From a virus, in the IMG/VR virus record IMGVR_UViG_3300029908_000007, positions 1 to 64,000 of that record: a DNA stretch of 64,000 nt, one strand, 5' to 3'. The translations under genes and the position numbers were made by a program. Under the pieces are notes generated by a model that saw nothing but the letters and a program-made list of their open reading frames with translations, was not told where the DNA came from and searched no databases. Of this stretch, positions 20,301 through 56,588 are shown in pieces; the stretch's first letter is position 1; each line of letters opens with the position of its first letter.

Positions 20301-21116
20301 CGTAATAGTGCCAGCAGAAAAGTTGCCAGAACCGTCTCTAAGAACTAATGTAGAAGCCGTATTTGAGGAAGTTGCTGCCGCTACAGCAATTGCTGCAGTT
20401 GCAACAGCAGTAGCACTTTGCCCACCAACTGTGGAAACAACCGTAGCGCTTTGAGTACCGGTTACATCACCAGATAAAGATCCGGTGAAATTAGTTGATG
20501 TCGTAGAAGTAGTTGCGTTACCACTTAAATTAGCGGTGACAATACCGGCGGAGAAATTACCAGAAGCATCTCTTTTTACGATCGTAGACGCCGTGTTAGA
20601 GGGAGTAGCTGCATTAGCTAAAAGTTCCGCAGAATGTACGCTTGCCGCAGAACTTCCGCCCACAAACGAAACAACTGTAGCACTTTGAGTACCGGTTACA
20701 TCACCTACCAAAGAACCCGTAAAGTTAACGGAAGTGGTTGCATTTGTAGCGGTACCGGTTAAGTTAGCCGTAATAGTGCCAGCAGAAAAGTTGCCAGAAC
20801 CGTCTCTAAGAACTAATGTGCTTGGGATATTAGCACTCGTTGCGGCGAAGTAAGCAGCAGTCGCAGAAGCAACGTTAGCGGCACTTTCACCGCCAACAAA
20901 ATTTACAGTAGTTACAGCAGACCCAGGTCCTACTGCACTTACATCACCTGTTAATGCAGTGATTGCATTGGTAGCACCAAAAGTAAATACGTTTCCAAAA
21001 GAATCTTCTATATTAACGGTGTTGTCTGTTTTAATATATAGAACATAAGACCCTGTTGGGGGTGGCGAAGGAGTGGTGGCTAATGCTGGAAACTGAATCG
21101 TACCTGGTATACTCAT
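17391..21116 (-). CDS. Long repetitive tail fibre protein (1241 aa)
   Basis: Thr/Ser/Ala/Gly-rich repeats (LSGDVTGTQSAT; LVLRDxSGNFSAGTITANL; ITALTGDxTATGPG); C-terminal ITITLP...IVD.SG...NNITI domain. Confidence 0.85.
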   Translation of the reverse strand: MSIPGTIQFPALATTPSPPPTGSYVLYIKTDNTVNIEDSFGNVFTFGATNAITALTGDVSAVGPGSAVTTVNFVGGESAANVASATAAYFAATSANIPSTLVLRDGSGNFSAGTITANLTGTATNATTSVNFTGSLVGDVTGTQSATVVSFVGGSSAASVHSAELLANAATPSNTASTIVKRDASGNFSAGIVTANLSGNATTSTTSTNFTGSLSGDVTGTQSATVVSTVGGQSATAVATAAIAVAAATSSNTASTLVLRDGSGNFSAGTITANLTGTATNATNAITSVNFTGSLSGDVTGTQSATSISSATVTGKLLTGYTTGTNTPILSTDSILIAFEKLQAQVSGTTGSAITALTGDVSATGPGSATATVNSVGGQSASAIAATVVIVGNATSSNTASTLVLRNASGNFSAGTITANLTGTATNATTAVNFTGSLSGDVTGTQTATVVSTVGGVTASAVATSVAATQAATSSNTASTLVLRDASGNFSAGTITSNLTGTATNATTAVNFTGSLSGDVTGTQSATSISSTTVTGKLLTGYTTGTNTPILATNSILTAFENLQAQISATVGSAITALTGDGTATGPGSAIFTLATVNTNVGSFGGSTSIPSFTVNAKGLITAASGNAVVAPAGTLTGTTLASNVVNSSLTSVGTIVSGVWNGTALTAPYMLALPTNEIYVGNGSNQPAAVAMSGDVSIVSSGATSIASTTVTGKLLTGYTTGTNTPIIATNSILTAFENLQAQVSATVGSAITALTGDGTATGPGSVTFTLSTVNSNVGSFGSSTAIPSFTVNAKGLITAASTSVVVAPAGTLTGTTLNSTVVSSSLTSVGTITSGVWNGTPLTAPYMLALPTNDIYVGNGSNQPAAVTMSGDINIASSGATTIQANVVSNSKLAQAPADTLKGNNTGSTANVTDLTVSQVNTMLGTVTTIGAIDTNANSNGLFISGNTLSTQSASVSNPGMVNTATQSFAGNKTFTGTVNIIPASTSALVINSTSFVHDSVNNALGIGVQPATTVMIDGVNTSGASKLVQMTGYGTGSTTGYRGRFARGTLLSPTATQSGDTLSVISGRGYGTSQFAAASTGVMNIVAGENFTNTSNMTYLQFQATPTGSVTSAEHMRVAATGVTLGPQSASTDLHTVNGGWIRTTRTITGSLTVDTTTTDDIIFCNQSAGITITLPTPTNGRTLTIVDISGNAQTNNITIARHASELIEGLAASKVYQTNYGSLVLTADVSGNWWTIG

Positions 21117-22375: not shown

Positions 22376-24142
22376 TTAAGGTCTATTATTTGCTTCATTT
22401 GTTAATTGATTGGGATCGGCACAAATTTTTTGATATTCTGCGTCAGCCCGTGCTTCACTTCTTTCGAACTCATTGTCCCTAGGTGAAACCACAATCCCCC
22501 CTAGGGTACCTAACACCCCAGCAATGCTCACAGCGTTCACCAGACTCTCTTCCACGGCTTTGGTGGCATCAAACAACCCCAACTCTATGGCATCTCCATA
22601 CGTCTCATTTTCTACGTCGTAAACCAATTCAGGATTACCGATGAGCTTTGAAATGACTTCGGCGATTTCCTCGACGTTATGGCCAGCATTGTCTAGAAGC
22701 GTTTTGGGTAGACTCAAGAGAGCTTCCATGAGGACTTCTCTGGCGGGATCTCCTTCGGGAAGAGTTTCCGCGAGTTTAATAGCCATGTCAATGGCAATCC
22801 TGGTGCCACCAGGCAAACAGCCATATTTAATAGCTGACCGCATAGCCATAGTTGCGTCTTCGATACGATCGTGTTTTTCTTTGAGATCAGCTCCAGAGCC
22901 AGCAAAAACTGTGAACTTGGCGATACCACAGGTCAGTAGGGCTACTCTTTCTTGAAGCCAAAGCTTTTCAGCCTTGGTTTCAGAATTTGCAATCATTTTA
23001 GTTAAGTCACCAGCTCTAACCTCGACATTCATGGGTTCTGGGTCTCCAACTACCGTGGATCTAAACCGATAACTCTCGAAATATTCCATGCCGCCGCCGA
23101 GATCGTTGATATTAGCTCCAGACAGCTGATCTTTGATGCCGAATACCTTGGCTCCAGTGAAAGCGGCTAGATCGTATAAAAAAGCTTGTTGGGAATTGGT
23201 GAAGCCTCGCATAGGGGTCTTCAAGGGCATAATATTGATAGTGCTAGTGTTGACGAAATTGAACGTCAACGTGGTGAGTACGTTATCCGAAAATCCATGA
23301 GCAACTACGACGGTGTTTTTGAAATCTTCGTCGCCAGCCGCATATCTTTCGCCGACCTCGTTTAGAATAGGGGTGATTTGGATGAGATCGTTGATCATAC
23401 CATCGAATAAGATGAAGCGGGGTTTCTCAAGATAGGCCCTTTGGTTTCCCTGATCATTGATAAAAACATTGTTAAACTTTCCCAGATCTTCGAGTCCGGA
23501 ATAAATGGGCAATCCGTCGATTCTTTCAATTTTATAATCCTCGGGTCCTGATAATTCTTTGATAGTGATATGAGAGCCTTCGCCGAATCCAATGAGTTCG
23601 AAACATTCATAGACTTTATTGGCCATTTCAAGATCGCCGTTGGCACTAATCTTGCCTACCTGTCTGAGAAGGTCTTTGTTGTCTTCGCTGATCGTGATAG
23701 CACGGCTTTGAATATAGGGTACCAGAATGTCGGAGACCGCTTTTTTGATTTTACGAACGGCTTTCTGAGGACTATATTTGGGATTATTTTGGCAAAATTC
23801 GAAAAGATTTTTGATAAGTTGGTGGGCTAGGATAGTGGTGGTTGTGGTGCCGTCGCCCGCGCCTTCGCCGACGCGCTGAGCACTGTCTCTAGAGGTTTCG
23901 ATGATGACGTGATCGATGGAATCGATGGAACCAAGACTGGTGTAAACGCTGACGCCGTCTTTGCTGATGCGATTACTAATACCGGGAAGGTCGCTCTCAA
24001 TTAAAACGGTTTTTCCACCGGGCCCGAGGGTACCCCCAACTATGTCCGCGATTCTACTGGTAATATTGAGGACTTTCCGCTTAATAAGCTCGCGGTCGCT
24101 GATGAACATTTTTGGGGTGGTCTTGGCTTTACGATGGGACAT
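22376..24142 (-). CDS. groEL: Phage chaperonin GroEL (Cpn60)
   Basis: TLGPGG, KDGVSV, GDGTTT, ISANGD, EKHDRIEDA, LPGG motifs; no GGM tail. Confidence 0.93.
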   Translation of the reverse strand: MSHRKAKTTPKMFISDRELIKRKVLNITSRIADIVGGTLGPGGKTVLIESDLPGISNRISKDGVSVYTSLGSIDSIDHVIIETSRDSAQRVGEGAGDGTTTTTILAHQLIKNLFEFCQNNPKYSPQKAVRKIKKAVSDILVPYIQSRAITISEDNKDLLRQVGKISANGDLEMANKVYECFELIGFGEGSHITIKELSGPEDYKIERIDGLPIYSGLEDLGKFNNVFINDQGNQRAYLEKPRFILFDGMINDLIQITPILNEVGERYAAGDEDFKNTVVVAHGFSDNVLTTLTFNFVNTSTINIMPLKTPMRGFTNSQQAFLYDLAAFTGAKVFGIKDQLSGANINDLGGGMEYFESYRFRSTVVGDPEPMNVEVRAGDLTKMIANSETKAEKLWLQERVALLTCGIAKFTVFAGSGADLKEKHDRIEDATMAMRSAIKYGCLPGGTRIAIDMAIKLAETLPEGDPAREVLMEALLSLPKTLLDNAGHNVEEIAEVISKLIGNPELVYDVENETYGDAIELGLFDATKAVEESLVNAVSIAGVLGTLGGIVVSPRDNEFERSEARADAEYQKICADPNQLTNEANNRP

Positions 24143-24172: not shown

Positions 24173-25570
24173 TCATAAGTCTATGATCCATCGTTTCTTT
24201 CCACAATCCCAGATTCGAACGTAGCCAAGTGATTGAGCCATTTCTTTCTCAGTTTCTCCTATAGCACCCTTTTCAAGAAGATGCTTTTTTTGACAAGATT
24301 GTTTTGAAATTCTCTTATTTCGATATACATAGGAATAGTCAGGTTTTAAATTCTCTTCCATGACGAATCCCGTTTTTTCATAAACCCCTCCAATAGACCA
24401 ACGATTGTCGGACCAGGAAACAAGTTTTTTATAACTATTTTTCTTAGCATAATCTATAAGAGAAGTCAGCAATTTAGAAGAACCTCCGGAAACAGAAATT
24501 CCTCTTTTAAAAACCAATCTATTAAGCGCTAAAATCTCTCCATCTCCTTGACGATGATGATTGTTTCCCGTTACTAAACCGACTAGCTCTTCGTTATAGT
24601 ACAATCCAAAAGCTATTTTGATTGGAGCAGATCCTTGGATATGATGTTCGTCTAAAAAAACTCTAGCTACTTCCTTAGGAACTTCTTGAATTTGAGTCTT
24701 CCTTCCCATAATTTTTGTAGGATTTTTACCAATAGTAGACAGCAAAAAGTTTTTAATTTGATCCTTTCTTTCGGACCATTCGTCGCCAAAGATAGTTATC
24801 AAGCGTATTCCGTCATTTTGAGCCTTAATCATTTTATTAAAGTGGTACATTTCTTCTCTTGGAGTAGGACTTTCTTCGTTATGCCAGTATAGTCCACAAT
24901 ATTCTATGCCTATATTAAGTTCTGGTAAGTGTATGTCTATTTCGCTTCCACCAGCTCTATGTTTAAACTTATATTTTTCTACCTTCAAACCCAGACTTTC
25001 CATCCATTCTTTTATTTCTATTTCAAAACTAGAAGTTCTATTGCATCCAGAACAGTGCATGCACGAATTTTTAATGACGGTATGGATTTTACTAGTTTCT
25101 CTAGTATTTAGACATTTAAGGCATTTAATAATAAAAGATTTTGTTTTGCTTTGAAACCCAGAAACATACTCAAATCCTCTTTCGTTGAGCATTAGTTTTA
25201 TTTGCTCTAGCGCTTCTGGAGATCCAGCCTGTTCCTTATAAGCATTCCTCATATTTTCCATAGCAAGCGGATCTTTAGCTAATTTTGCTTTATAGGCATG
25301 CTTTTGACGTTCTTCTGGAGAAAGGAGGACGTTTTTTTCTTTATTAATTTCTTTTACTTTACTAAGTTTTACACCGCTTAACGCCACTATTTCTTTGTTG
25401 GTTTTACCTTGTTTTTTTAAGGAAACCACGAAATCAATCTGCTCTTCGGTATATTTTATCTTGCTTTTAGCAACGATAGCGGCAGTACACTCTTTCGAAC
25501 AAGAGTTTCCTCTGCCTATCCATTTATATTCAAATTCTTTACTGCAGTTTTTGCAATTCGCAACTTTCAT
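24173..25570 (-). CDS. Hef-like homing endonuclease (Vsr/PD-(D/E)xK domain plus GNAT/Mom-like C-terminal domain)
   Basis: EIDIHLPELNIGIEYCGLYWH; HIQG...LNRL...SWSDNRWS..VYEKTGF...IWDCG; own TTGACA-N17-TATGCT promoter. Confidence 0.8.
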   Translation of the reverse strand: MKVANCKNCSKEFEYKWIGRGNSCSKECTAAIVAKSKIKYTEEQIDFVVSLKKQGKTNKEIVALSGVKLSKVKEINKEKNVLLSPEERQKHAYKAKLAKDPLAMENMRNAYKEQAGSPEALEQIKLMLNERGFEYVSGFQSKTKSFIIKCLKCLNTRETSKIHTVIKNSCMHCSGCNRTSSFEIEIKEWMESLGLKVEKYKFKHRAGGSEIDIHLPELNIGIEYCGLYWHNEESPTPREEMYHFNKMIKAQNDGIRLITIFGDEWSERKDQIKNFLLSTIGKNPTKIMGRKTQIQEVPKEVARVFLDEHHIQGSAPIKIAFGLYYNEELVGLVTGNNHHRQGDGEILALNRLVFKRGISVSGGSSKLLTSLIDYAKKNSYKKLVSWSDNRWSIGGVYEKTGFVMEENLKPDYSYVYRNKRISKQSCQKKHLLEKGAIGETEKEMAQSLGYVRIWDCGKKRWIIDL

Positions 25571-25614
25571 ATCTAATAGCATATAATAAAGATTGCGGCT
25601 TGTCAACCACGAAA

Positions 25615-25675: not shown

Positions 25676-27061
25676 TTAGCTGAGCTGGCCAGTAATATTG
25701 TCGATTAACACGTTTTTTCTTGGCTGGTAAGCTGCCAATGACAGAAACCTAAAATGCGCCTCGGGGAGGCTGAGGTCGCTCACAGCAAGTTTAAGTTTGC
25801 TATAAGGAGCAAGCTGAGCGATACCGAGTGTATTGCCCTGGATCAGGAATCCCGTCACAGAACCTGGCTGTTTGTTGCCCAAGTCGGTGAATACAGGGTT
25901 GCCCGAACTCTGCTTGATCTTACCAATGAACTTGGCTTGTGCAGCGGTTCCGCCAACACCTGAGCGATATACGTTGTAGTATGAAGCTCCGGATACAGCG
26001 GTAATCGTCACAGTCACTTTGTCCCCAGCAGCGGTAACCGTTGCCGTTTGTGGAGCGCCTGGAAGAGATTCGCCCAAGATCGACACGCCCGTCGCGTAGT
26101 ACACATAGGTACCGGCTTGGAGCAATGACCCAGCAGCACCGGCATCAGCAACAGTAATTGCTGGAGCCGAAGGCGTGCCTTGGCGTGAACGAGCAGGCTG
26201 CGTTTTTCCAGAGAGGAAGCGTGAAGCTTCGAGGGAAACAACAGCGCTAGAAGTCCACTGCGTGCGAAGGTGAGCGCCAGTAGCTTCCTGGGCAGACCCA
26301 GCGAGCATAATGCGTTCTTTGGCATGCGCGATTTTGTTATAAGCACTCAGAGAGATCGGATCAAGGATTAAGCGATCAGCAGCGCCCATGTTCATGGCCG
26401 AGCGAACCGAAGAATCTTCGATGATTGACTGAGTCAGTGTTCCGCCCGAAGACAGTACAACCGTTTGGTTGGATCCGAATTCAGCGAACATCAAGTCTTG
26501 CGTGTTAGCTTGCCCATCAGACTGGCGAACCTGTTGGTCGACACCGATCATATTAGGAAGCTGAGCAACAACCGTTGGATTGCCGTCGAAAACACCGGCG
26601 TTCGAGAAATCAGCTTGTCCACGGAACAAGTCGAATTCGATATCGCCAGCGAGTTTCATCGCAGCATCGGCAGAAGAGCGGTCTTCAGCCTTAACGCCGT
26701 CGAAGGCGCCAATCATGTTTGCAGCAACGGTCACACGACGGATCGTGCTGTAGTATGCCATAGGCACAACAGCGCGAATGAAGTTCGACACGTCTTCTTC
26801 GCCGACGCCGCCTTCAAATTGAGCGGATCCACCGAAGATACCGTAGTCTAGCTGACGGTTGAATTGATGAAGTTGCGATTTAACTTCCTTGGAAGGAAGG
26901 ATTTTCTGCAATTTGATGTGGGAATCGTCGAACGTGACGTTTTGCATCACAGGCGACAAATCTTCCATCATAAGGGCGGCGCCCTGTTCCAGGTTCTGTG
27001 GGGAGGCCATGTAACTGCCCGCTTCGAGAGCCTTCATTAGTGACTGAAGTTGTTCGATCAT
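25676..27061 (-). CDS. Major capsid protein (SPO1/K/A511-like) with an Ig/FN3-like insertion
   Basis: MKALEAG...GAALMMEDLS N-terminus; biased codon usage; follows the scaffold; strong terminator; GTYVYYATGV...YYNVYRS insertion. Confidence 0.88.
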   Translation of the reverse strand: MIEQLQSLMKALEAGSYMASPQNLEQGAALMMEDLSPVMQNVTFDDSHIKLQKILPSKEVKSQLHQFNRQLDYGIFGGSAQFEGGVGEEDVSNFIRAVVPMAYYSTIRRVTVAANMIGAFDGVKAEDRSSADAAMKLAGDIEFDLFRGQADFSNAGVFDGNPTVVAQLPNMIGVDQQVRQSDGQANTQDLMFAEFGSNQTVVLSSGGTLTQSIIEDSSVRSAMNMGAADRLILDPISLSAYNKIAHAKERIMLAGSAQEATGAHLRTQWTSSAVVSLEASRFLSGKTQPARSRQGTPSAPAITVADAGAAGSLLQAGTYVYYATGVSILGESLPGAPQTATVTAAGDKVTVTITAVSGASYYNVYRSGVGGTAAQAKFIGKIKQSSGNPVFTDLGNKQPGSVTGFLIQGNTLGIAQLAPYSKLKLAVSDLSLPEAHFRFLSLAAYQPRKNVLIDNITGQLS

Positions 27062-27090: not shown

Positions 27091-27930
27091 TTATTTGAGC
27101 AGGTGGCTAATACTGTTAATGTTTACCTGCCCATTGAGGTAAAACGAATTGATTGCGTCTCTATCGGACTTCTCAAGCTTGGACGGATCCTTCGCCATAA
27201 GAATTTTGTGAATCTCGCTCTTAGTAGGAGTCTTCACTTCAACTGGCGTTTCGCTTTTGGCGATAACGTCAAGGGAAGTAATTGCCTTACCTTGAGGAAC
27301 GGTTTTCTTAGCAAGAGCCGTCAAGAATTCCTTAATCGCTGCCTTTTCAGCTTTTTCAGCTGCAAGTTCGTTTTTAAGAAGTTCGACTTCTGTGTTTTCT
27401 GATTTTTCCATCTGCTCTCCATCTGCTTTGCTGGCGGGCGATTTAGCGCCTGGGGTCTTAGAAGGAGCATCGGCAGACATTTCTCCGCCGCTTTTGTGTC
27501 CTTCAGTACCTAGGTCTTTTGCCTTTTCGTGTTTTTCCATCTCGGCTGGTTTGGCTTCAGTTTTACCCATACACTTTTGAAGACAGCTATGATGAGCGCT
27601 TTGCTCTGCCGGAGACATTGAGCGATACATTTTGTCCATGTGCGCCATGTCTTCTTCGTCATAGTCATGACCCTGTTCATGGCCTTCTTTGGCTTCATGT
27701 TCGGGTTTTTCTTCGTGATGCTCTTCTTTGCCTTCTTCCTTAGCTTCTGGCTTCTCGCCTTCAGCAGGAGCGGCTTCTTTGTGTTCGGGCTTCTCTTCAT
27801 GCTTGTCTTCAGCTGGCTTTTCGCCATCTTCGGACTTCGCAAGAGTTGACTTTTTATTAGCCAATTCAGCAGTAAATGCTAGTTCCACATCGGCTACGAG
27901 TTTTGCAACGGCTTCTGGTGTGTACTTCAT
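27091..27930 (-). CDS. Capsid scaffold-like protein
   Basis: Acidic, His-rich, low-complexity; directly upstream of the capsid gene; multiple KSE motifs. Confidence 0.7.
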   Translation of the reverse strand: MKYTPEAVAKLVADVELAFTAELANKKSTLAKSEDGEKPAEDKHEEKPEHKEAAPAEGEKPEAKEEGKEEHHEEKPEHEAKEGHEQGHDYDEEDMAHMDKMYRSMSPAEQSAHHSCLQKCMGKTEAKPAEMEKHEKAKDLGTEGHKSGGEMSADAPSKTPGAKSPASKADGEQMEKSENTEVELLKNELAAEKAEKAAIKEFLTALAKKTVPQGKAITSLDVIAKSETPVEVKTPTKSEIHKILMAKDPSKLEKSDRDAINSFYLNGQVNINSISHLLK

Positions 27931-27971
27931 ATTTACTCCTTTCATTATTATATTGGTTAAAAAGTCTATAA

Positions 27972-28642: not shown

Positions 28643-29269
28643 ATGAGAGGCCACAATTTATTAGGCAAAACGTTTGGAAAGCTAACAGCAGTAGAAAGAA
28701 TTGTGCGCGAAAATCCCGAAAAGGGGGAGCAAAGAAGTCGATGGCTTTTTAATTGTGAATGCGGGAGTACTAGAATATCCAAAGCAAGTGCTGTGGTTAA
28801 GGGCTTTATTAAAAGTTGTAAAGAATGTACCGCTAAAGAATACAAAAGTGCTCAAGGAGCACGCGGAAGAAATAAGAAATTTGAACCAAAAGAAGCTTCA
28901 TTCAGAGCAAAGGCTTCTAACGTCAAAGCTCACGCTAAAATTAGAAACATCCCATGGGCTTTGACTTTAGAGCAAACTTCCGAAATATTAAAAATGGATT
29001 GTCATTATTGTGGATGTGGGCCCTCCAATCCTTACAATACTTTTAAAAATAGGAGTTGGAAACAGTCTCTTAAATATCCCAAAGAAAATGTTTTGGAGAA
29101 AGGTGAAATATTGTATAACGGTGTTGATAGGTTAGATAGTGATATTGGTTACACACCCGAAAATTCGGTCCCATGTTGTACTTTTTGCAATGTCGCTAAA
29201 AATGATAGACCTGTAGAAGAATTTCTAATTTGGCTGGATAAATTAGTTAAATTTAGGAGCAAAATATGA
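28643..29269 (+). CDS. HNH-type homing endonuclease
   Basis: GKTFGKLTAVER/CECG N-terminal module; CHYCG...NGVDRLDSDIGY...N.VPCCTFCN. Confidence 0.85.
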   Translation: MRGHNLLGKTFGKLTAVERIVRENPEKGEQRSRWLFNCECGSTRISKASAVVKGFIKSCKECTAKEYKSAQGARGRNKKFEPKEASFRAKASNVKAHAKIRNIPWALTLEQTSEILKMDCHYCGCGPSNPYNTFKNRSWKQSLKYPKENVLEKGEILYNGVDRLDSDIGYTPENSVPCCTFCNVAKNDRPVEEFLIWLDKLVKFRSKI

Positions 29270-32152: not shown

Positions 32153-33160
32153 ATGAGGAAGAATTGGGACTATCCAGACGAAATAATTCAACTAGCCCTG
32201 AAACACGGGAGTATGACGGATTTTATCAAAAATAGCGCCGGAGCATGGCAGGCCGCGAAACGCTTTGGCATAGACAAAAAGATCAAATCTCTTATGCCTG
32301 TAAAAAAGAGAGGCGCTTACACTTACGAAGAATTAAAAGAATTTGCTCTTTCGTGCGGAACTAGAGGAGAATTTAAAAAGAAATCTCCGTCTAAGTATAA
32401 CGCAGCTCGTGATATGGAAATTTTAGACGAAATTTGTTCTCACATGCCTCCTCCAAAAACGGAGGCTTACACGTATGAGGAATTAGAAGCTCTAGTAAAA
32501 ACTTGCTCTTCTAATCAGGAATTTAGAGATAAATATCCTGGGGCCTATACTGTTGCTTGTAGCAGAAAAGTGTTAAAAAAACTGTGTAAAGATTTTCCAG
32601 AAGCTAAAAATAAGAAACATACAAGAGAAGAAGTGGTAGCATTTTTTGGTAAAGATGGATACGAAGTAGTTAGCGAAAAATATGTAAACGCCAACACTCG
32701 TCTAGAAACCATTTGTCCGGCTGGCCACACTTATTTTGTTAGATATGGCGATTTCTATACTGGTTATAGATGCGCCGATTGCGTACTTAATAATGTCTCT
32801 AAAATGGAGTTGGAACTTCTAGAAGCTCTTAGAAAATACGTTCCAGAATTAAAAAGAAAAAAGTTTAAGGTTACCGTTCTGAATAAATCCCATATTAAAG
32901 CTTTTGAAGTTGATATGTATGACTCAGAAAAGAAAATTGGAATTGAATTTGATGGAGAATACTATCATTCTTTTGAGTACATGAGAAGCGATAAAAAGAA
33001 AAAGAAATGGTCCGATGAAGATATTCGAAATTATCATGAAATTAAGGATAGCGCTTTAATGGACTGTCACGGTATTTTGGTATTACACATTAAAGAAGAA
33101 GAGTGGAAAGTCGACAAACAAGCTTGTATCAACAAAGCTTTAAGGTTTCTAGGAGTATAA
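32153..33160 (+). CDS. PD-(D/E)xK/Vsr-like homing endonuclease with N-terminal helical repeats
   Basis: YTYEEL..A...EF...P..Y repeats, CPAGH/CADC, FEVDMY...IGIEFDGEYYH; own TTGACA promoter at 32115. Confidence 0.8.
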   Translation: MRKNWDYPDEIIQLALKHGSMTDFIKNSAGAWQAAKRFGIDKKIKSLMPVKKRGAYTYEELKEFALSCGTRGEFKKKSPSKYNAARDMEILDEICSHMPPPKTEAYTYEELEALVKTCSSNQEFRDKYPGAYTVACSRKVLKKLCKDFPEAKNKKHTREEVVAFFGKDGYEVVSEKYVNANTRLETICPAGHTYFVRYGDFYTGYRCADCVLNNVSKMELELLEALRKYVPELKRKKFKVTVLNKSHIKAFEVDMYDSEKKIGIEFDGEYYHSFEYMRSDKKKKKWSDEDIRNYHEIKDSALMDCHGILVLHIKEEEWKVDKQACINKALRFLGV

Positions 33161-33161
33161 A

Positions 33162-34016
33162 ATGGCAGATTTCTCAGCCTCAAGGACATTTCAAACCGCG
33201 CAATACCCCGTACACGCATCCCAAACTTCTGGATTGCTTAAGCGCGTAGAACCATTTCTAACTCCCGAACTTTTTATAAACAGATTTCTTTTGGGAGTCC
33301 CTCTTAAATTTGCAAACGGACAGTCATTTACCGATGAGATTATAAAAGATCGTATCATGCTCGCAATGAACGAATCAGAAGCGCAAATCGGAACCACAAT
33401 CACAAGAGAAGAGTTTAAGGATAAACTAGGATTTGACGCCAATTTATACCGCAGCTTTATACATTTAAAGCCACGGCATTCTCCAATTATAAGCATTGAA
33501 AGTTTAGCTATTGTTGCGAGCAATGACGAAGTTATTTTTGTTGTACCTAGTATGTGGATAGAGCTATCTTCTTTATCAATGGGTTACATTAACGTCGTCC
33601 CACTTTTAGCTGCTTTTGGAAGTTTTTCTGTCACCGGTTCACCAATCACAGCAACGAATCAGGGGGCGGGCGTTGCTTTCCTGGCCCTGTGGGGACAAAA
33701 TGGCTCATCGCAACACGTCCCAGGATATTGGCAACTTAATTACAGTGCAGGTCTTTCAAATCGCGAAGGACACGTTCCGACTATCGTCAATCAACTCATC
33801 GGAACAAATGCGGCCATCAACATTCTCAGCCAAATAGCACAATCTTTTACAACTACTTCTCAAACATTGAGTCAAGATGGAATTTCACAAAGCAGTTCGG
33901 GTTTGGGTCCTCGCACCTACGCACTTCGCCTCGAAGAACTCACAAAGAACAGGGATGAACTTATAAAGAAAATCAAGGGAATCTTCGCTAAATCCTATGT
34001 AATCGGAGAATACTAA
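33162..34016 (+). CDS. Head-tail adaptor/neck protein
   Basis: AMNESEAQIG...PIISIESL...LNYSAG...SQDGISQS pattern of myophage adaptors. Confidence 0.6.
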   Translation: MADFSASRTFQTAQYPVHASQTSGLLKRVEPFLTPELFINRFLLGVPLKFANGQSFTDEIIKDRIMLAMNESEAQIGTTITREEFKDKLGFDANLYRSFIHLKPRHSPIISIESLAIVASNDEVIFVVPSMWIELSSLSMGYINVVPLLAAFGSFSVTGSPITATNQGAGVAFLALWGQNGSSQHVPGYWQLNYSAGLSNREGHVPTIVNQLIGTNAAINILSQIAQSFTTTSQTLSQDGISQSSSGLGPRTYALRLEELTKNRDELIKKIKGIFAKSYVIGEY

Positions 34017-35243
34017 ATGTCCTTGCTTAAGCATCTCCGCAAAGCTCTTACCGAAGAGTACTCGCTGAAGAAAGCTGAGGATCCCGTTGCCTACGCTAAG
34101 ACCGCTTCCACTGGTTTCATTCTTGCTCACCCTGTAAAGATCAACGGCGAAAGTCACAGAAAAGATAATGGTATCGATTACCATTCCACTGTAAAATTCT
34201 TCGATAAAGAAAAAGACAACCACGACGACGCCCACAAAACCGCTTCCCAATTAGACCTCACCCCACCCGATCCCAAAGAAACCCATATCGGCACCAATGT
34301 GATTAAAGATCGCATGGGTAACGACGTATACGCGATAACTTTGCATGGCAAGCACGCCGACAAGCTCAAAGAGAATCATAAAAAGTTCGATCACATGGGT
34401 CACAAAGAAAACTATGACTGGAACGCCCACATCAGTGTGCCTAAAGCCGTACACGATGAAATCAAAGCCAGCGGCCATAAGACCGCGCATGAAGCCGGAA
34501 TTGAATTCGGGCCAGCACAGCTGAAGCGTGGCAAAGAAGTTATTCATACTTATAAATTAAAAGAGCCGATGAAAAAGTCCGAAGGCGACGCTCCCTCAAC
34601 CGTCAAGCCTCCTGTCAAAATCAATCCCGAACACGGTAAGGCCATAGCAGATGCCTACGAGGGTATGAAACACGAGCCCAATAGCCCACACGTCAAAGCC
34701 GCCTACGATGCTTTGACCAACGAGACCGGCAAACAATTCAAAGACATCATGGGATCCGGACTTAAGATCTCGCAAATCAAACCCGGTCAAGCCAATCCCT
34801 ACAAAAGTTCCAAAGAAATGCATAACGACATCAAGAATAACAAACATCTGTGGTACTTCCCAACCGAACAGGGCTTTGGTAGTGGTGGGCAAGCTTCGGA
34901 CCACCCAATGTTGGGCCCCAGCGGTTTCAAACACGACGGCAAGTCTTTGGTACACAACGACATCTTTAGAATCGTTCACGACATCAACGGCCATCACGCC
35001 GGTGGAGAAACCGGATTTGGGCCAACCGGGGAGCACCAAGCCTATCTCACCCATAAGAAAATGTATAGCCCTCTAGCGGGAAAAGCATTGGCTACAGAAA
35101 CTATGGGACAAAATAATTGGGTGAATTTTGGTCCTCACGGAGAAAACAATAGAAAAAATCCAGCCCAGACAAAGTTTGCGGATCAAAAAGCGGGATTGTT
35201 ACCAGAACACATTACCAATGGAGACTGGCACAATGCATCATAA
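34017..35243 (+). CDS. Two-domain protein: Acb1-like 2H phosphodiesterase plus HDxxGH (zincin-like) domain
   Basis: YHSTV (H56) and AHISV (H138) 2H motifs; after MKKSE, NDIFRIVHDINGH...GEHQAY...TETMGQN. Confidence 0.7.
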   Translation: MSLLKHLRKALTEEYSLKKAEDPVAYAKTASTGFILAHPVKINGESHRKDNGIDYHSTVKFFDKEKDNHDDAHKTASQLDLTPPDPKETHIGTNVIKDRMGNDVYAITLHGKHADKLKENHKKFDHMGHKENYDWNAHISVPKAVHDEIKASGHKTAHEAGIEFGPAQLKRGKEVIHTYKLKEPMKKSEGDAPSTVKPPVKINPEHGKAIADAYEGMKHEPNSPHVKAAYDALTNETGKQFKDIMGSGLKISQIKPGQANPYKSSKEMHNDIKNNKHLWYFPTEQGFGSGGQASDHPMLGPSGFKHDGKSLVHNDIFRIVHDINGHHAGGETGFGPTGEHQAYLTHKKMYSPLAGKALATETMGQNNWVNFGPHGENNRKNPAQTKFADQKAGLLPEHITNGDWHNAS

Positions 35244-36426
35244 TCAGTGGAAGAAAGAATTTGAAGATTCCGTGGAACCATCTTTACGTAAAGCCGAAGA
35301 TCTCCATCTAGTCCACTATTCCCCCCAAGCCGGTCTCAAATACATCGACCCAAAGTTCAGCGGAACCGGCGTCGACAGCAGAACCAAAGGCCGCAGCACC
35401 GAACACCCACACTCCTTCTATTATAGGCATGGAACCGAACCCGAAGAAGTGGTAACCGGTAGAGCTGCTAACAAATACCACGTTAAAATCGGCGCCGACA
35501 AACCCATTTACGATATTGGTAAAGATCCTAAGGGCTTGGTCAGACAAGCCATCGAGGAAAATCAAGGTATTACTAATATGGATACCGTACACTCCAAAAT
35601 CAAAGAACACGGCTTCCATGGATTCCATAATAGCGGGCACCCCAGTCTTTCCAATGTAGTGGCTATGTATCACCCGCAGCCGGTTCAGAACGACAGCATG
35701 CAGAAATCCGAAATCCAACCCCTTCTAAAACCCTGGTCCAGCCAAGCTCAAGCCGCATGGGGTCATTCACCTGAAGGTAAAGCCGCGCTTGGTGGAGAAG
35801 CCGCTGTGAAGGAATGGGATAACGCTACCAAAGGCAAGCATCTGCCAAAGCATGTTAAAAAGAACGAATCCCTCGAAAAAGGCGCACTCAAAAATCTCCT
35901 AACCGCTGGAACCATGGGCGCTGCTTTGGCCTCCGCTGTTCCCTCAGAAGCCCACGCGCCCAATCACGAACCCCTACATCCCCAAGCCGGTGCTCACCCA
36001 ACTACGGGCTACGATCGAAAAAAGATGTTAGACGCTATTTCACAAGTTGAGAGTAGCGGCGGAAAAAATACCGTGCACAAGCCAACCTCCATGGGCCGAG
36101 CATATGGCCGATTTGCCGAAATGCCCGACATGATCCACGACACTATTCGCCTCAACCCCGATCTGAAACGCCAGCATCAAAAAGCCCTAAATCTTCAGGG
36201 TGACGATCTCCACCGTTACATGCAGGACAACCCAAAGTTAGAAGAGCAGATCGCCGATAAACATCTTTCCAGACTCGAACACCATTTCGGCCAGAATCCC
36301 AGCCTAATAGCGTTTTCTTGGAACCAAGGTGTCACAGGTACGAATCGCGCCTTAAATCAAAAACACGACATTTCCTCGCACCCATATGTGCAGAAATTTA
36401 AACACGCCTACGAAGGCAAGGAGTAA
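35233..36426 (+). CDS. Multidomain protein: ART-like domain, small PWSSQAQ module and lytic transglycosylase (SLT/lysozyme-like)
   Basis: GGAG RBS before ATG 35233; LVHYS...SFYY...GFHG; ISQVESSGG...AYG...SWNQG. Confidence 0.65.
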   Translation: MHHNQWKKEFEDSVEPSLRKAEDLHLVHYSPQAGLKYIDPKFSGTGVDSRTKGRSTEHPHSFYYRHGTEPEEVVTGRAANKYHVKIGADKPIYDIGKDPKGLVRQAIEENQGITNMDTVHSKIKEHGFHGFHNSGHPSLSNVVAMYHPQPVQNDSMQKSEIQPLLKPWSSQAQAAWGHSPEGKAALGGEAAVKEWDNATKGKHLPKHVKKNESLEKGALKNLLTAGTMGAALASAVPSEAHAPNHEPLHPQAGAHPTTGYDRKKMLDAISQVESSGGKNTVHKPTSMGRAYGRFAEMPDMIHDTIRLNPDLKRQHQKALNLQGDDLHRYMQDNPKLEEQIADKHLSRLEHHFGQNPSLIAFSWNQGVTGTNRALNQKHDISSHPYVQKFKHAYEGKE

Positions 36427-36921: not shown

Positions 36922-37269
36922 ATGTGCGTAGAACTTGTTAAGAGTGAAACCCAAGTCAGTTTTAAACCCGAACTTCCTCTAGAAGAGCAAATCTGTGGAT
37001 GCCAGGAAGCTATTATTGACTGCGAACCCGATTGCCCGAAGGTACTGAAGTTCTTGGCCGAAGTCGAAAAGGCCTGCCAATATGGGAAATCGTTGGGAAT
37101 CAAACTTAGCCTAGTTGATACACACAACTTCGGATTGTTTAAAAAAGTTAAGGATTTAAACCAAGCCATCGCTACTTCTGATATAATACATCAGATAGTT
37201 TTGTTTCACGACAAAGCCGATCGTAGACTAGAAGAGATTGCTAACATGTGTAGGAAACCGAATGAATAA
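36922..37269 (+). CDS. Hypothetical protein
   Basis: Operon packing. Confidence 0.6.
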   Translation: MCVELVKSETQVSFKPELPLEEQICGCQEAIIDCEPDCPKVLKFLAEVEKACQYGKSLGIKLSLVDTHNFGLFKKVKDLNQAIATSDIIHQIVLFHDKADRRLEEIANMCRKPNE

Positions 37270-38811: not shown

Positions 38812-39738
38812 ATGAAACCGAACGCCGAGTACTTTCTCAGAAAGACACTTGGAGAAGACCTTAAAGAGTCGTTAGGCGAAGTCCTATCTAAGTCCGAAGT
38901 CTATAAGCAAGGTACTCGTACTATTACCGATACCGACGATCTTTTTCAAGGTCTTCAAATCGTTCCACGAGCACTACTAAGTCTTTTGGTTAGAGAGTTG
39001 TCTCCCATGCAAATCGGAGAAAATAAAGAAATTCGCATTCCAGGAAAAGAAGACACCACGGTTCAGGTTACCAAGCATGAGCGTGATTCCTATAGTGGTC
39101 AAATAATTCAAAACAACGTTAAAATCAACGACTTTATGCACCGCTCATTACCGGGTTTAGGTTTGGTTTTGATGACAATGCTAGAACTATACGACTTCGA
39201 AGATCTCAAAGAAACTCCTTCCGCCGACCACTCCCATATCAACAAGCTCATCGACGAACGCATGCATCTTCACTCCCTCATCAACCAAGTCGTAGATGGC
39301 AAGCTCATGCACCGCGACGCCGTTGAACAGCTTCTCATGACCAAGCTAAATCAGATGGGCACCGAACATAAAGAGATTAAAGAAGAACACAAAGAAATCA
39401 TGAAGCCCGAAGAACCTAAGGCAACAGTGGTTATTAACATCGAAACCGCTAAAAAACGTCGTCCGTTATCGGAATTCGTGGAAAATCGTAAAAAGAAACT
39501 TGCCAAGAAAGAGCATTTTATAGAAATGAAAAAATCCGAAGAAATTTCATGCCCGGATTGCGGGAACGTTATTTTTTCTGAGGGTGCTTACAGCGGCTGT
39601 ATTTGTTTTGGTGATAGCGATAAAAAGCTTTATGTTAAAAAATCTGAAAACGGCTATATGGTGCGCCCTGGTCGTGGGTGGGATGAAGAGAATCTGGAAA
39701 TGCTTTTGGAAGCTTTGAGGGGTAATAAAAATGGGTAG
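38812..39738 (+). CDS. Hypothetical protein with C-terminal zinc finger
   Basis: CPDC...CIC; LSKSE, MKKSE, VKKSE motifs. Confidence 0.7.
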   Translation: MKPNAEYFLRKTLGEDLKESLGEVLSKSEVYKQGTRTITDTDDLFQGLQIVPRALLSLLVRELSPMQIGENKEIRIPGKEDTTVQVTKHERDSYSGQIIQNNVKINDFMHRSLPGLGLVLMTMLELYDFEDLKETPSADHSHINKLIDERMHLHSLINQVVDGKLMHRDAVEQLLMTKLNQMGTEHKEIKEEHKEIMKPEEPKATVVINIETAKKRRPLSEFVENRKKKLAKKEHFIEMKKSEEISCPDCGNVIFSEGAYSGCICFGDSDKKLYVKKSENGYMVRPGRGWDEENLEMLLEALRGNKNG

Positions 39739-40480
39739 CGGCGGCAAGAACAGACTATCCGTTGAAGAAGTTGAGCGGAGGGTTCAACTTGCTCATGGTG
39801 GCATGGTTACAATGGTCGGATCTACCTACAAAGGTATGCTTAAAAAAGCATTGTTCGTCGACAAGGATCATGGGGAATGGTGGACAAAACCGGGTGACGT
39901 AACATTTAAGAAATCGGGCCATCCCTTAAGATCTTTAGAAAAATCAAGAAATACCTTTACGAGTAAATACGGTATTGGTATCATTAATGCCAGTCAAGTA
40001 GAAGAAATAAAAGAAAAAAAGAAAGCAACTACATTCAAAAACCATGGTGTTAAGCATCCTTCTCAGAGTAAGGCGATCAGAGAAAAGGCTCAAAACACGA
40101 CCCTAGAAAGGCATGGGGCTTTATTCCCGTATCAATGTTCAGACATTGCTCTCAAGGCCGCAAAAAAAGTAAACAATCCCAGTACAAAAATTCATTGGAA
40201 AACCGGAGAAGAACTATTTTGTCAAGGCGGATATGAAGCCAAAACTGTTGACTATCTTAATGCCAACCAAATTAACTTCGAATGGCAGCCCAAGACATTC
40301 AAAATGCCTGATGGTAAAACATATCGTCCTGACCTATACCTGTCTGACACAGGCATTTGGGTTGAAATAAAAGGCTGGATGAGAAAAGATGCTGAGTTAA
40401 AGTGGGACTGGCTCAAATCTGAATACCCTAACGCAGAACTTTGGAATCAAAAGAAACTAGAAGAAATGGGGATATTGTAA
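39731..40480 (+). CDS. PD-(D/E)xK homing endonuclease
   Basis: T..K.HGV.HPSQ repeats; YRPDLY...WVEIKG. Confidence 0.8.
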   Translation: MGSGGKNRLSVEEVERRVQLAHGGMVTMVGSTYKGMLKKALFVDKDHGEWWTKPGDVTFKKSGHPLRSLEKSRNTFTSKYGIGIINASQVEEIKEKKKATTFKNHGVKHPSQSKAIREKAQNTTLERHGALFPYQCSDIALKAAKKVNNPSTKIHWKTGEELFCQGGYEAKTVDYLNANQINFEWQPKTFKMPDGKTYRPDLYLSDTGIWVEIKGWMRKDAELKWDWLKSEYPNAELWNQKKLEEMGIL

Positions 40481-45226: not shown

Positions 45227-45823
45227 ATGAAAACCTGTTCGAAGTGCGAAATCACAAAAGACCTTGAATGTTTTGGGAAAGCTCCCCAAAACAAAGACGG
45301 TCTTAATGGGCAATGCAAAGAGTGTAGAGCCGCTTATTTACTAGATTATAATGAAAAAAACAAAGAAAAGGTTATGGCGGGTCAAAGAAGATATTATAAA
45401 GAAAACAGGGTAGAGATTATAGAAGAAAAAAAGATCTATCGTGCTTTGAATTTAGAAACTATCAAACCCAAAACCAATGCTAGACTCAGGGCTAGAAGAA
45501 AAAATGATCCTCAATTTAAATTGGCAGCTAATTTAAGAGGACGTCTTAATATGGCTATTAAAAGAGGGTACAAGGCAGGTTCGGCGGTAGATGATTTGGG
45601 ATGTTCTGTAGAATCTTTTAAATCTTATATAGAAGGTCTACTCCAGCCGGGCATGACATGGGCTAACTATAGCCCAAGAGGATGGCATTTGGATCATAAA
45701 GTCCCCTTGGCTAGCTTTGATTTAACAGATAGAGAACAGTTTTTGAAGGCTTGTCATTACACCAATTTACAGCCTTTGTGGGCCGTAGACAATATTAAGA
45801 AAGGTGACAAAATTTATGGCTAA
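45227..45823 (+). CDS. HNH homing endonuclease
   Basis: CSKC...CKEC; GMTWANY..WHLDHKVP...HYTNLQPLWAVDN. Confidence 0.9.
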   Translation: MKTCSKCEITKDLECFGKAPQNKDGLNGQCKECRAAYLLDYNEKNKEKVMAGQRRYYKENRVEIIEEKKIYRALNLETIKPKTNARLRARRKNDPQFKLAANLRGRLNMAIKRGYKAGSAVDDLGCSVESFKSYIEGLLQPGMTWANYSPRGWHLDHKVPLASFDLTDREQFLKACHYTNLQPLWAVDNIKKGDKIYG

Positions 45824-46097: not shown

Positions 46098-48236
46098 ATG
46101 AATCAGCAATTAGTCACTCCAAATGTGTCGACAAACATTCCAGGCACTTATGTTAATTATACCGTACTAAGTCAGCCAATCGGCGTAACTTCCAGCGGTA
46201 TTCTTTTGATCATGGGCGAAGCCGCAGGCGGCCCTAGCTACGAACAAGTCGCGCTTAAAAACAGCGTTTACACACCCGATCAGCTTCAAAAGGTCATCCA
46301 GACCTACACCAGCGGTCAGATCGTCGACGCTTTCCAGGCCATTACCGCTCCTTCTAACGACGCCAACATCTCGGGTACCGCTACCCAAATCTACGTCGTT
46401 AAGACCAACACGGGAACCAAAGCTAATGCGACACTTCCTAGTTCTTATGGAACGCTAACCGATATCAACTGGGGAGTTCTTGGAAATCAAGACCAATATC
46501 AAACTTTAGCTGTTCAAGCCGAAGTCGCTCCCACTGTGACCGGTGGAACCATTCCTTCTTTCAGTGCAACTCCCAACGCTACTTTTACCGTTCGCTTGAA
46601 CGGTGGCGCTGCTATGGTTGCAACGGTTGGATCCGGTCCCTATACTACGGGCGCTCAAGTCGCTGCTTCCATCACCGGGCTCCCATCTGGTATCACCGCT
46701 AGCGGTAACGCTACTTCTATCACTTTAACTGTCACTGCAGACGCTTCTGCTTGGGGTAAAGGTTGGGGTAAGAGCTTCGAGCTTATCGACAGCACTCCAG
46801 GCGATCTGGCAGCTTTAGGTCTTGCTCCTGGTTTGACCGTTTCTTCGGAAGAACCTGAAATCGAACTCCAAGATTCCAATGCTTCTCGCGGTGTCAGCGA
46901 AACCTTAACTGCCAACGCAGCGGTAGCTCTTGCTGTTGGTTATGCTGGAACCACAGCTACTCTCACTATTGCCTTGGTTTCTGGCGTCTATACCTTAACC
47001 ACAACGGTTACCGGCGGCAGCGGTGGAAATCTGAGCATTAACTTAAGCCAGTATTCCACAATCGGCGCTTTGGCGACATTCATTGCAAGTCAAATCGGCT
47101 ACTCCGCCACTGTCATTCCTGCCGCTAATTCTCTTCCTACTTCGGCATTGGACGCGGTTTCTGCAATAGGTATTTGCGCAACTGGCGCTGGAGACGAACC
47201 CGGTCGTATTAAAATGGGACTTTATCAGTTCGAACAAGCGATGGCCACCAGCAAACAGTTGGTTTTCACGCCAATCGCAACCGCAGGGCTTCCCGCTCCT
47301 ATGACCGCCCCCGCTTATCTGACTGGCGGAACCATCGGCGCCACTCTGGCTGCTGATATCGTTAATGTCGTCGACACCCTGGGCGGTGTAAACGTTGACA
47401 TTATCGTTCCATTGTTCTCGCAAAACGCTAGCGCCGATATCATCGCTGGTTTGACGGATCCTGCTTCGACTTATACGATTGCCGCTATCAATGCATTGCT
47501 TAAGAGTCATTGTATTGAGGAAAGCAATCCGAGCCTTAACAGAAACCGTATTTGTATCTTGTCTATGAACAGTACGTTTGCAATTGCCGCAGCCGCCGCT
47601 CAAGGCCTTGCAAGCGCTCTGTGTTCTTTGACCTTCCAGAATGTAACACAGGTTAATAGCCTTGGTGTTATCACTCAGTTCCAACCTTGGTACGCCTCGG
47701 TTGTCGCTGCTGGCATGCAGTTGGGCGGATTTTACAAAGCCATTGTAAACAAATACGCAAACCTGATCAGTATCATCGATCCATCGGACTACGATAGTGG
47801 GTCTCCTGGCGATACCTCAGAAGCTTTGTCTGCTGGTTTGCTTCCTCTATATACCGATATCGGTGGACCTAAATGGGTTAGCGATCAAACAACCTACGGA
47901 ATCGATTCCAACTTTGTGTGGAATTCAATCCAGGCCGTGTACGACGCCAACTTGATCGCAAAAGATCTGAAAGTCAGTTTCACCAATGCTTTTGTTGGTC
48001 AAAGTTTGGCCGACGTTTCCGCAGCATCAGCTTCTGCTTTCTTAACGCAGAAGATGGCTGGCTACATGCAGCTTAAACTGATTGCGCCTAGCAATGGTGC
48101 CCCACTTGGTTTCAACAATGCGAAGATCACAATTGTCGCACCTACAATGACCGTGGCCGTGAACATCTATCTCGCAACGGCGATTTATTTTATTCCAATC
48201 AGCTTCAGTATCTCAGCTGTGGAACAATCGGCTTAA
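46098..48236 (+). CDS. Tail sheath protein
   Basis: IPGTY, IMGEAAGGP, YLTGG, FVGQ motifs; 712 aa; followed by the tube gene. Confidence 0.9.
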   Translation: MNQQLVTPNVSTNIPGTYVNYTVLSQPIGVTSSGILLIMGEAAGGPSYEQVALKNSVYTPDQLQKVIQTYTSGQIVDAFQAITAPSNDANISGTATQIYVVKTNTGTKANATLPSSYGTLTDINWGVLGNQDQYQTLAVQAEVAPTVTGGTIPSFSATPNATFTVRLNGGAAMVATVGSGPYTTGAQVAASITGLPSGITASGNATSITLTVTADASAWGKGWGKSFELIDSTPGDLAALGLAPGLTVSSEEPEIELQDSNASRGVSETLTANAAVALAVGYAGTTATLTIALVSGVYTLTTTVTGGSGGNLSINLSQYSTIGALATFIASQIGYSATVIPAANSLPTSALDAVSAIGICATGAGDEPGRIKMGLYQFEQAMATSKQLVFTPIATAGLPAPMTAPAYLTGGTIGATLAADIVNVVDTLGGVNVDIIVPLFSQNASADIIAGLTDPASTYTIAAINALLKSHCIEESNPSLNRNRICILSMNSTFAIAAAAAQGLASALCSLTFQNVTQVNSLGVITQFQPWYASVVAAGMQLGGFYKAIVNKYANLISIIDPSDYDSGSPGDTSEALSAGLLPLYTDIGGPKWVSDQTTYGIDSNFVWNSIQAVYDANLIAKDLKVSFTNAFVGQSLADVSAASASAFLTQKMAGYMQLKLIAPSNGAPLGFNNAKITIVAPTMTVAVNIYLATAIYFIPISFSISAVEQSA

Positions 48237-56587: not shown

Positions 56588-56588
56588 T

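Follow-up and report, generated by a model that had tools for sequence, protein, structure and literature searches.

In 2017, polyvalent phage proteins with 2H modules were predicted to be injected, the modules serving either to break down defence nucleotides or as RNases (Iyer et al., PMC5512222, section 20). Here we describe a candidate of this kind, P0001, encoded by a single open reading frame (ORF) in the 64-kb window (the whole stretch of DNA that was analysed) that forms the first part of IMG/VR virus record IMGVR_UViG_3300029908_000007 (162,308 bp, estimated to be 98% complete). P0001 is a two-module protein of polyvalent type: a short leader precedes an N-terminal domain with the motifs of 2H phosphoesterases (the N domain), which a flexible linker connects to a C-terminal domain of viral proteins (the C domain). 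As in the proteins of Iyer et al., 2H is combined with unrelated effector domains, the gene lies among virion genes, and an RNA ligase partner is missing. Unlike them, P0001 has two modules only; it carries no MuF, portal, or zincin metallopeptidase (MPTase) domain, and its partner domain lies outside the Pfam LPD families.

Other viral 2H enzymes offer further comparisons. Acb1 (T4 gp57B and FBB1 Acb1; PF23474) and PDE-9 of Burkholderia phage BCSR5 (9Q2G/9Q2Y) share with the N domain the phage 2H fold and a dyad of H-x-T/S motifs, and they cleave messengers of the cyclic-oligonucleotide-based antiphage signalling system (CBASS). However, Acb1 stands alone and is early or cytoplasmic; the N domain belongs, as one module, to a late protein that is probably found in the virion. 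Among eukaryotic viruses, the 2',5'-phosphodiesterases of rotavirus (C-terminal domain of VP3) and coronavirus (ns2) and the poxvirus cyclic GMP-AMP (cGAMP) phosphodiesterase (PDE) are 2H domains that destroy immune nucleotide messengers. The VP3 domain is part of a large multidomain protein packaged in the virion and ranks near the top of the N domain's structural matches, but the hosts and messengers of these viral enzymes are unrelated to those of phages, and their identity to the P0001 module is 12–13%.

Delivery together with phage DNA is illustrated by T4 and phiKZ. The T4 internal proteins and Alt carry a capsid-targeting leader that is removed by the prohead protease gp21, and the inner-body proteins of phiKZ are cut by gp175. 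In both phages the short leaders end in a Glu-containing motif that recurs in scaffold proteins (the protease consensus is L/I-x-E in T4 and S/A/G-x-E in phiKZ), and the cargo is delivered with the DNA; that of T4 counters host defences (IPI*) or targets host enzymes (Alt). The pattern in P0001 resembles these leaders, with a different motif, hydrophobic-x-K-[AS]-E. Unlike its counterparts, this motif is also found where one enzymatic module meets the next, and a single gene would in this way give rise to several effectors.

A 2025 survey of phage 2H PDE diversity describes 13 multidomain cases and diverse messenger specificity among viral 2H PDEs; virions, capsids, and polyvalent proteins go unmentioned in it (bioRxiv 10.1101/2025.08.21.671373). 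A virion ejection protein reported elsewhere blocks CBASS through a different mechanism (bioRxiv 10.1101/2025.07.23.666291). The general idea of 2H modules in injected polyvalent proteins is already known (PMC5512222). The P0001 locus adds three elements: a boundary motif, open to experiment, that would tie polyvalent modules to the head protease; a slot that is hypervariable among Mx1-like phages; and a partner domain with an orphan fold.

The best explanation of P0001 as a whole, to which we give an even chance, is a late polyvalent effector of an Mx1-like phage, made up of leader, 2H domain, and C domain, that is packaged, cut, injected, and active in degrading a messenger. P0001 would be made late, alongside head and neck proteins, and would enter the prohead. 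There, the prohead protease would cut after E21 and E189, freeing two modules to enter the cell together with the phage DNA. The 2H module would then hydrolyse a phosphodiester in a small nucleotide, with a 2',3'-cyclic phosphate as the intermediate usual for 2H enzymes; its likeliest target would be a defence second messenger, for example a cyclic oligonucleotide of CBASS or type III CRISPR, or a 2'-5'-linked one. An earlier note on this DNA had proposed a packaged, Acb1-like anti-CBASS nuclease; its observation is confirmed, and its interpretation is partly supported. Head packaging, protease release, and anti-CBASS-type substrates are what we infer for P0001 from its sequence and by analogy.

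The N-terminal 2H domain

The sequence features picked out in the earlier note are all present: the 408-residue ORF; YHSTV (H56) and AHISV (H138); LKKAE (residues 17–21) and MKKSE (185–189); and, in the C domain, NDIFRIVHDINGH (314–326). An exhaustive HMMER search with residues 1–195 found 83 representative clusters, comprising proteins of 113–1668 residues in which the position of the domain varies. When 68 homologues from clusters at ≤50% identity are aligned, no columns other than H56 and H138 are invariant (68/68 each). The first motif has the consensus H-x-[T/S]-[IVL] followed by K, its third position being T in 54 and S in 14, hence T or S in 68/68. The second reads H-[IV]-[S/T]-[VIL], with S in 36 and T in 31 (67/68). 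The 2H superfamily is recognized by two H-x-[T/S]-x motifs with hydrophobic neighbours, and these are found here about 80 residues apart.

Structure prediction agrees. The AF2 model of the N domain is confident (predicted local distance difference test, pLDDT, 90.1; predicted template modelling score, pTM, 0.83), and its top Foldseek matches are all 2H enzymes (E 4e-4 to 1e-2): first the BCSR5 phage phosphodiesterase (9q2g, E 4.4e-4), followed by Usb1, YjcG, the penguinpox cGAMP PDE, cyclic phosphodiesterase (CPDase), AKAP18, and Acb1. By VIA-align, CPDase, VP3, YjcG, LigT, Usb1, AKAP18, Acb1, and the penguinpox PDE superpose on the model with Z scores of 7.0–9.6 over 113–145 residues, led by plant CPDase (1jh6, 9.6), rotavirus VP3 (6o3v, 9.5), YjcG (9.0), and LigT (8.9); PDE-9 (9q2y) reaches 7.8, and Acb1 (7t26/7t27) reaches 7.6. 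The family profile gives weak matches to PDB sequences (E 0.011–0.85), and 2H enzymes fill four of the top five places: the LigT-like 2fyh and 1vdx, Acb1 (7t26), and YjcG (2d4g). Together, invariant motifs and predicted fold bear out the claim of a 2H fold with both catalytic motifs, and residues ~22–180 almost certainly form a 2H phosphoesterase.

Family-level searches were nearly silent. A Pfam scan of the whole of P0001 returned no family at E≤1, no curated 2H family model scored above threshold, and phmmer with the whole protein found only chance matches among PDB sequences. Across the 68 homologues, Pfam gave sub-threshold matches only, to 2_5_RNA_ligase2 (in 7), Acb1 (in 6), and LigT_PEase (in 4). 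A tblastn search with the 2H module against 50,697 isolated phages found no match at E≤0.01, so the subfamily is known only from metagenomes.

The designation 'Acb1-like' did not survive as a family assignment. The Pfam Acb1 model (PF23474) matches neither P0001 nor anything else in the genome, and hhalign of the family profile against T4 gp57B yields a probability of 7.6%, over 47 columns around the second His motif only; with 6 of the 68 homologues giving sub-threshold matches, membership in the Acb1 family was rejected. Because the Pfam model is silent and the hhalign probability so low, the N domain is placed, by its sequence, in a separate, divergent 2H subfamily. The comparison with Acb1 and LigT, which the earlier note had suggested, upheld the 2H fold but not a specific kinship to Acb1, whose Z of 7.6 falls below that of LigT. 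Nor is Acb1 the nearest structure by VIA-align: enzymes of the Acb1/PDE-9 group score 7.2–7.8, against 8.9–9.6 for LigT, VP3, and CPDase, the differences between Acb1 and the leading 1jh6 and 6o3v staying within about 2 Z units. The Foldseek order is different, with 9q2g, an Acb1-group enzyme, in first place.

A hypervariable slot

The P0001 gene occupies a variable slot directly 3' of a conserved structural gene of 284–311 residues, whose 284-residue version in the window is syntenic in contigs L003, L004, and L010 and in Myxococcus phage Mx1. The occupants of this slot differ completely among these genomes (Table 1). In L003 and L004 the flanking genes are as in the window.

Fusions tell a similar story of shuffling. 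Partners of the 2H module are SLT, NUDIX plus VTC, and GNAT; direct fusion to SLT is seen in P0045, P0211, P0222, P0226, and P0236, and P0126 joins 2H to the counterpart of the C-terminal half of the gene that follows P0001. This next gene encodes a leader ending in LRKAE, an unassigned domain of ~135 residues, an MQKSE linker, and an SLT-like C-terminus (20.3 bits, against a Pfam cut-off of 21.3). It fits into this polyvalent locus as one more of its pieces. (An ART-like identity for its N-terminal part was considered; a single BLASTP comparison with the Mx1 ART region gave no support.)

P0001 thus shows what characterizes polyvalent proteins: at least two disparate domains, shuffled architectures, and a gene among virion and late genes. 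Very probably, its 2H domain is a module of this polyvalent slot, an accessory cassette. Genes for capsid, scaffold-like, portal, terminase, sheath, and protease-like proteins surround that of P0001. SLT is a virion-associated cell-wall enzyme, and the 2H–SLT fusions, together with this structural context, point to the virion.

The same block of co-oriented late genes encodes, 5 kb downstream, a protein with an mCpol domain (PF18182, residues 24–136, E 6e-16), which also gives a weak match to the Cas10 palm. The two proteins might act as a pair, the 2H module as destroyer and the mCpol protein as maker of a signal, the phage for example degrading host messengers and at once supplying the repressing nucleotide of a Panoptes-type system; broad 2H PDEs do trigger mCpol-based Panoptes (bioRxiv 10.1101/2025.08.21.671373). 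However, L003, which like L004 has a counterpart of the mCpol gene (559 residues) downstream of the slot, retains it where the slot has no 2H module, and in L010 the 2H module sits in a different fusion, with no mCpol called within 8 kb downstream. Coupling is therefore not obligatory, and we consider a functional pairing very unlikely. Separately, the Mx1 genome has an annotated 'nucleotide cyclase' elsewhere.

Boundary motifs and a candidate head protease

The view of P0001 as a modular, polyprotein-like protein was borne out: LKKAE and MKKSE lie in stretches of low model confidence that flank the 2H domain, and such motifs recur at module boundaries in many homologues. In the 2H set, 23/52 homologues have the strict motif ending no more than 4 residues from where the domain starts (overall motif density leads us to estimate about 2 by chance) and 25/41 have it within 45 residues past the domain end; it occurs only once inside the domains. 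Among C-domain homologues, it ends 3–35 residues upstream of the domain in 41/105 and never falls inside. Stand-alone homologues of both modules carry leaders ending in K-[AS]-E, such as the MYKKV.K.LKK[AS]E type of many stand-alone C-domain proteins. Counts of K[AS]E in the two sets of boundary segments are 58 and 42. Each permutation of the same residues is found 1–14 times, making K[AS]E 4 to 58 times commoner; composition is thereby ruled out as the cause.

The distribution within the genome points to the head. Every protein with at least two motifs is encoded at 27–52 kb, in the head block: the scaffold-like protein (5 motifs against 1.3 expected); the protease-like protein (6 against 1.0 expected, two of them right after the protease-like domain, ahead of the others); P0001; the product of the next gene; and late proteins of 308 and 228 residues. 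A 115-residue late protein (36922-37269) has one motif, in a 9-residue N-terminal leader, and K-[AS]-E leaders are found on four genes neighbouring that of P0001. The scaffold-like protein of Mx1 has four motifs at similar positions, and 4 of the 5 in the Mx1 polyvalent protein lie between Pfam domains. The candidate reader is a 617-residue protein whose N-terminal 165 residues share 34% identity (E 8e-29) with what is annotated in Mx1 as 'putative prohead protease'.

By their placement, these conserved K-[A/S]-E motifs between parts look like cut sites of the head protease. Because scaffold-like and protease-like proteins of the head share the motif with P0001, the prohead protease is a likelier processing enzyme than an in-built MPTase. 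We lean, if only somewhat, towards P0001 being packaged and protease-processed, on the strength of these sequence patterns.

Four points pull the other way. The K-A-E of the window's capsid protein is missing from that of Mx1; some homologues, P0127 for one, lack a leader and open with the 2H domain itself; among the homologues, no member of this 2H subfamily was seen fused to a MuF or portal domain; and the homologue sets counted above are not fully independent. P0001 might instead be an ordinary late cytoplasmic protein that stays out of the capsid, K-[AS]-E being a linker or leader feature that serves, for example, folding or interaction. The leaderless homologues fit this alternative, as does the mismatch between K-[AS]-E and the T4 and phiKZ consensus sequences; moreover, the protease call combines a weak PHROG match with homology to a merely 'putative' annotation. 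Against it stand the enrichment of the ordered motif over its permutations and its near-absence inside domains; its concentration in scaffold-like, protease-like, and neighbouring late proteins, at positions conserved in Mx1; and the SLT fusions and structural context. We judge this alternative to be quite unlikely and retain packaging as the preferred reading. (Virion proteomics of Mx1 was not found in the literature.)

The C domain

The partner of the 2H domain is by its sequence unusually well conserved for a phage protein. A near-length search with residues ~200–408 found 313 homologues (E≤1e-3), most of them 55–78% identical, and the AF2 model is confident (pLDDT 94, pTM 0.91). Invariant polar residues include H219, Y230, E236, Y262, N314, R318, H321, D322, E339, H346, Q365, and N366, a pattern that suggests an enzyme.

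Which fold this would be is another matter, since known structures gave little. Foldseek of the model against the PDB found nothing better than E>1, and the best Z in an exhaustive VIA-align comparison was 2.6. The Atlas, searched by features and by shape, returned only viral clusters without a name and no fold match; the domain profile met only chance matches to ribosomal uL23 among PDB sequences; and Pfam scans of 49 members revealed no consistent family. In PHROGs, P0001 matches only phrog_3170, a family without assigned function, through this domain. BFVD matches are exclusively viral, with polyvalent, MuF, ART-PolyVal, NAT, or LPD annotations. On the predicted model, the C domain is among the most conserved phage-only domains met in the analysis, and matches no known fold. 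(Since Iyer et al. describe an InPase domain that likewise has NUDIX and GNAT fusions, this identity was considered; it was rejected because InPase is an OB (oligonucleotide/oligosaccharide-binding) fold, whereas the C domain is helical with small sheets.)

The earlier note had called this domain zincin-like, which is unproven. HExxH is absent; in its place stands H321-D322-I-N-G-H326, one residue longer and with Asp for Glu. The closest structures are at noise level: the minigluzincins jannalysin and abylysin (Z 2.6 and 2.4), ArdC (Z 2.2), and an M78 ImmA/IrrE cluster (TM scores 0.32/0.41). The term is a lead only, from the model. A bolder form of it would make the C domain a divergent metallopeptidase that processes polyvalent proteins at K-[AS]-E, much as MPTase domains of polyvalent proteins have been proposed to do (Iyer et al., PMC5512222). 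The invariant H321-D322...H326...E339 do lie on two consecutive helices after a small sheet, and minigluzincins, ArdC, and ImmA/IrrE, weak as they are, head the list of matches. On the other hand, the motif is H-D-x-x-G-H instead of HExxH, and Mx1 has K-[AS]-E at its scaffold and polyvalent boundaries yet no C domain in its genome. This makes a shared head protease the likelier reader of the motif; the C domain is disfavoured in that role, and we regard the metallopeptidase interpretation as very unlikely.

Like the 2H module, the C domain travels. It occurs alone, in proteins of ~230 residues; it is C-terminal behind variable N-terminal parts in 50/106 homologues, and N-terminal ahead of SLT or other parts in 15/106. 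Its partners are SLT, GNAT, NUDIX, ParB, VTC, MuF, and ART. It is part of large polyvalent proteins in Planktothrix phage Pag-Yong1 (2772 residues, with LPD38) and Octadecabacter BD1 (gp16, with ART-PolyVal), and cluster C mycobacteriophages carry it too (Rizal gp102, flanked by head genes). In P0055, P0056, and P0058, from contigs of 144–172 kb, an S-adenosylmethionine (SAM)-lyase-like part precedes the C domain (PF23780, sub-threshold, E 1e-4 to 2e-5). SAM lyase is an anti-restriction activity known from phage T3.

The substrate of the 2H module

An immune nucleotide messenger is our leading candidate for the substrate, by analogy, at a likelihood a little short of even. The best Foldseek match of the module, 9q2g, is a cGAMP-cleaving phage PDE, and both the lack of RNA ligases in the genome and the reasoning of Iyer et al. 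(PMC5512222, section 20) favour a messenger too. Three considerations temper this. The 2H fold leaves the substrate unsettled, because Z scores are tied across LigT, CPDase, VP3, Usb1, and Acb1; two structural groups of phage 2H PDEs were inactive on all 18 messengers tested (bioRxiv 10.1101/2025.08.21.671373); and the usual partners, NUDIX and VTC/CYTH, suit RNA-end chemistry equally well.

The module might instead act on RNA or RNA ends, as a Usb1-like 3' exoribonuclease or as a 2',3'-cyclic phosphodiesterase that remodels the ends of host RNA or tRNA. In the larger fusions it could then work with NUDIX (removal of 5' pyrophosphate) and VTC/CYTH (triphosphatase), for example in host shut-off. 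Usb1, LigT, YjcG, and CPDase are at least as good a match to the model as Acb1, the recurrent NUDIX and VTC/CYTH partners are also RNA-end enzymes, and the RNase option was the first named by Iyer et al. (PMC5512222). Set against this are the top Foldseek match, which cleaves cGAMP (bioRxiv 10.1101/2025.08.21.671373), and the lack of an RNA-binding domain fused in P0001. Neither an Rnl2-type ligase nor RtcB was found in the genome, making classic RNA repair unlikely; the search for Rnl1 was uninformative, its control being silent too. RNA as substrate seems to us unlikely on balance, and what likelihood is left beside it and the favoured messenger goes to other small phosphodiesters.

Genome setting

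The source virus is a myovirus, Mx1-like; the closest isolate is Mx1 itself (capsid identity 54%), and a megablast search with 4 kb found no match among the 50,697 isolated phages. A full-length homologue of P0001, P0002, is 73% identical. The P0001 gene has a ribosome-binding site, GGAG, 8 nucleotides upstream of its ATG, and the preceding gene's stop codon lies immediately before this ATG, an arrangement indicative of translational coupling. Coordinates are collected in Table 1.

Table 1. Features of P0001, its gene neighbourhood, and the corresponding slot in related genomes (window positions unless a contig is named)
Feature	Position	Strand	Basis or remark
P0001 gene	34017-35243	+	single open frame, 408 aa
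N-terminal leader, aa 1-21, ends L-K-K-A-E, putative cut E21/D22	34017..34079	+	low pLDDT ahead of 2H domain
2H phosphoesterase domain, aa ~22-180	34080..34556	+	AF2 model, Foldseek, VIA-align; family profile maps 34071-34556
First 2H motif, H56-S-T-V	34182..34193	+	invariant H
Second 2H motif, H138-I-S-V	34428..34439	+	invariant H
Flexible linker, aa ~181-202, with M-K-K-S-E (K187-E189; putative cut E189/G190)	34557..34622	+	low pLDDT
Viral C domain, aa ~203-408	34623..35240	+	313 homologues, AF2 pLDDT 94
Next gene, 397 aa	35233..36426	+	own GGAG; overlaps P0001 gene by 11 nt
Conserved 284-aa structural gene, upstream edge of variable slot	33162..34016	+	phrog_772 'tail fiber protein'
Slot, this window	33162-36426		leader-2H-C domain, 408 aa, then 397-aa protein with SLT-like end
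Slot, L003/L004 (150 and 41 kb contigs)	L003:5143-7669		241-aa leader + C domain only, then 325-aa gene
Slot, L010 (116 kb)	L010:7055-10802		933-aa 2H-VTC-NUDIX protein
Slot, Mx1	L006:15834-22993		1479-aa GNAT / ART-PolyVal / NUDIX polyvalent protein, then 619-aa kinase-like protein
GroEL-like chaperonin near capsid gene, homing-endonuclease gene in between	22376-24142	-	phrog_5725, E 7e-75
Major capsid protein	25676-27061	-	
Scaffold-like protein, 284 aa, adjoins capsid gene	27091-27945	-	five K-[AS]-E motifs
mCpol-domain protein, 569 aa	40441-42150	+	PF18182
Tail sheath	46098-48236	+	
Candidate prohead protease, 617 aa, C-terminal extension	50277-52130	+	phrog_1028; Mx1 homology
Portal	56589-58448	-	
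Terminase	59495-61351	-	
Seven HNH / homing-endonuclease / endonuclease VII-like ORFs	24173-25606, 28643-29269, 32153-33160, 39731-40480, 45227-45823, 48876-50210, 55532-56611	-, +, +, +, +, +, -	

The endonuclease ORFs are dispersed among the structural genes; that at 39731-40480 is missing from the syntenic contig L003. Elsewhere, a fibre-like protein of 1241 residues (17391-21116, minus strand) is rich in repeats, with many copies of SGNFSAGTIT.NLTGTATNAT; its gene is associated with a region of raised G+C (0.49–0.52 at 14–18 kb) and is followed by three successive ORFs of 286–289 residues (14796-17389, minus strand). The 1241-residue ORF was considered as the counterpart of the Mx1 'prohead protease' and rejected, being repeat-rich and fibre-like; the 617-residue ORF is the counterpart.

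Implications

The locus can be read more broadly, as a tentative proposal that we rate below the packaging of P0001 itself and also below a messenger as its substrate. In this proposal Mx1-like and related phages would possess a cassette system: interchangeable modules (2H PDE, NUDIX, VTC/CYTH, GNAT, ART, SAM-lyase-like, SLT, and the orphan C domain) would be strung together in one hypervariable late slot, each flanked by hydrophobic-x-K-[AS]-E, and the prohead protease would free the enzymes within the capsid for co-injection, the C domain (>300 protein clusters) being a new enzyme among them. The K-[AS]-E rule makes concrete predictions: N-termini at D22 and G190 of P0001, and similar sites in many other proteins.

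If P0001 is indeed packaged, freed, and active on a messenger, a signal-destroying enzyme would be in the cell at time zero. This would solve the timing problem of anti-CBASS and anti-CRISPR nucleases that must first be transcribed, and it would provide the first experimental handle on the 2017 prediction for 2H modules in polyvalent proteins. If an activity were found for the C domain, hundreds of virion proteins could be annotated, among them proteins from cluster C mycobacteriophages and the polyvalent proteins of cyanophages.

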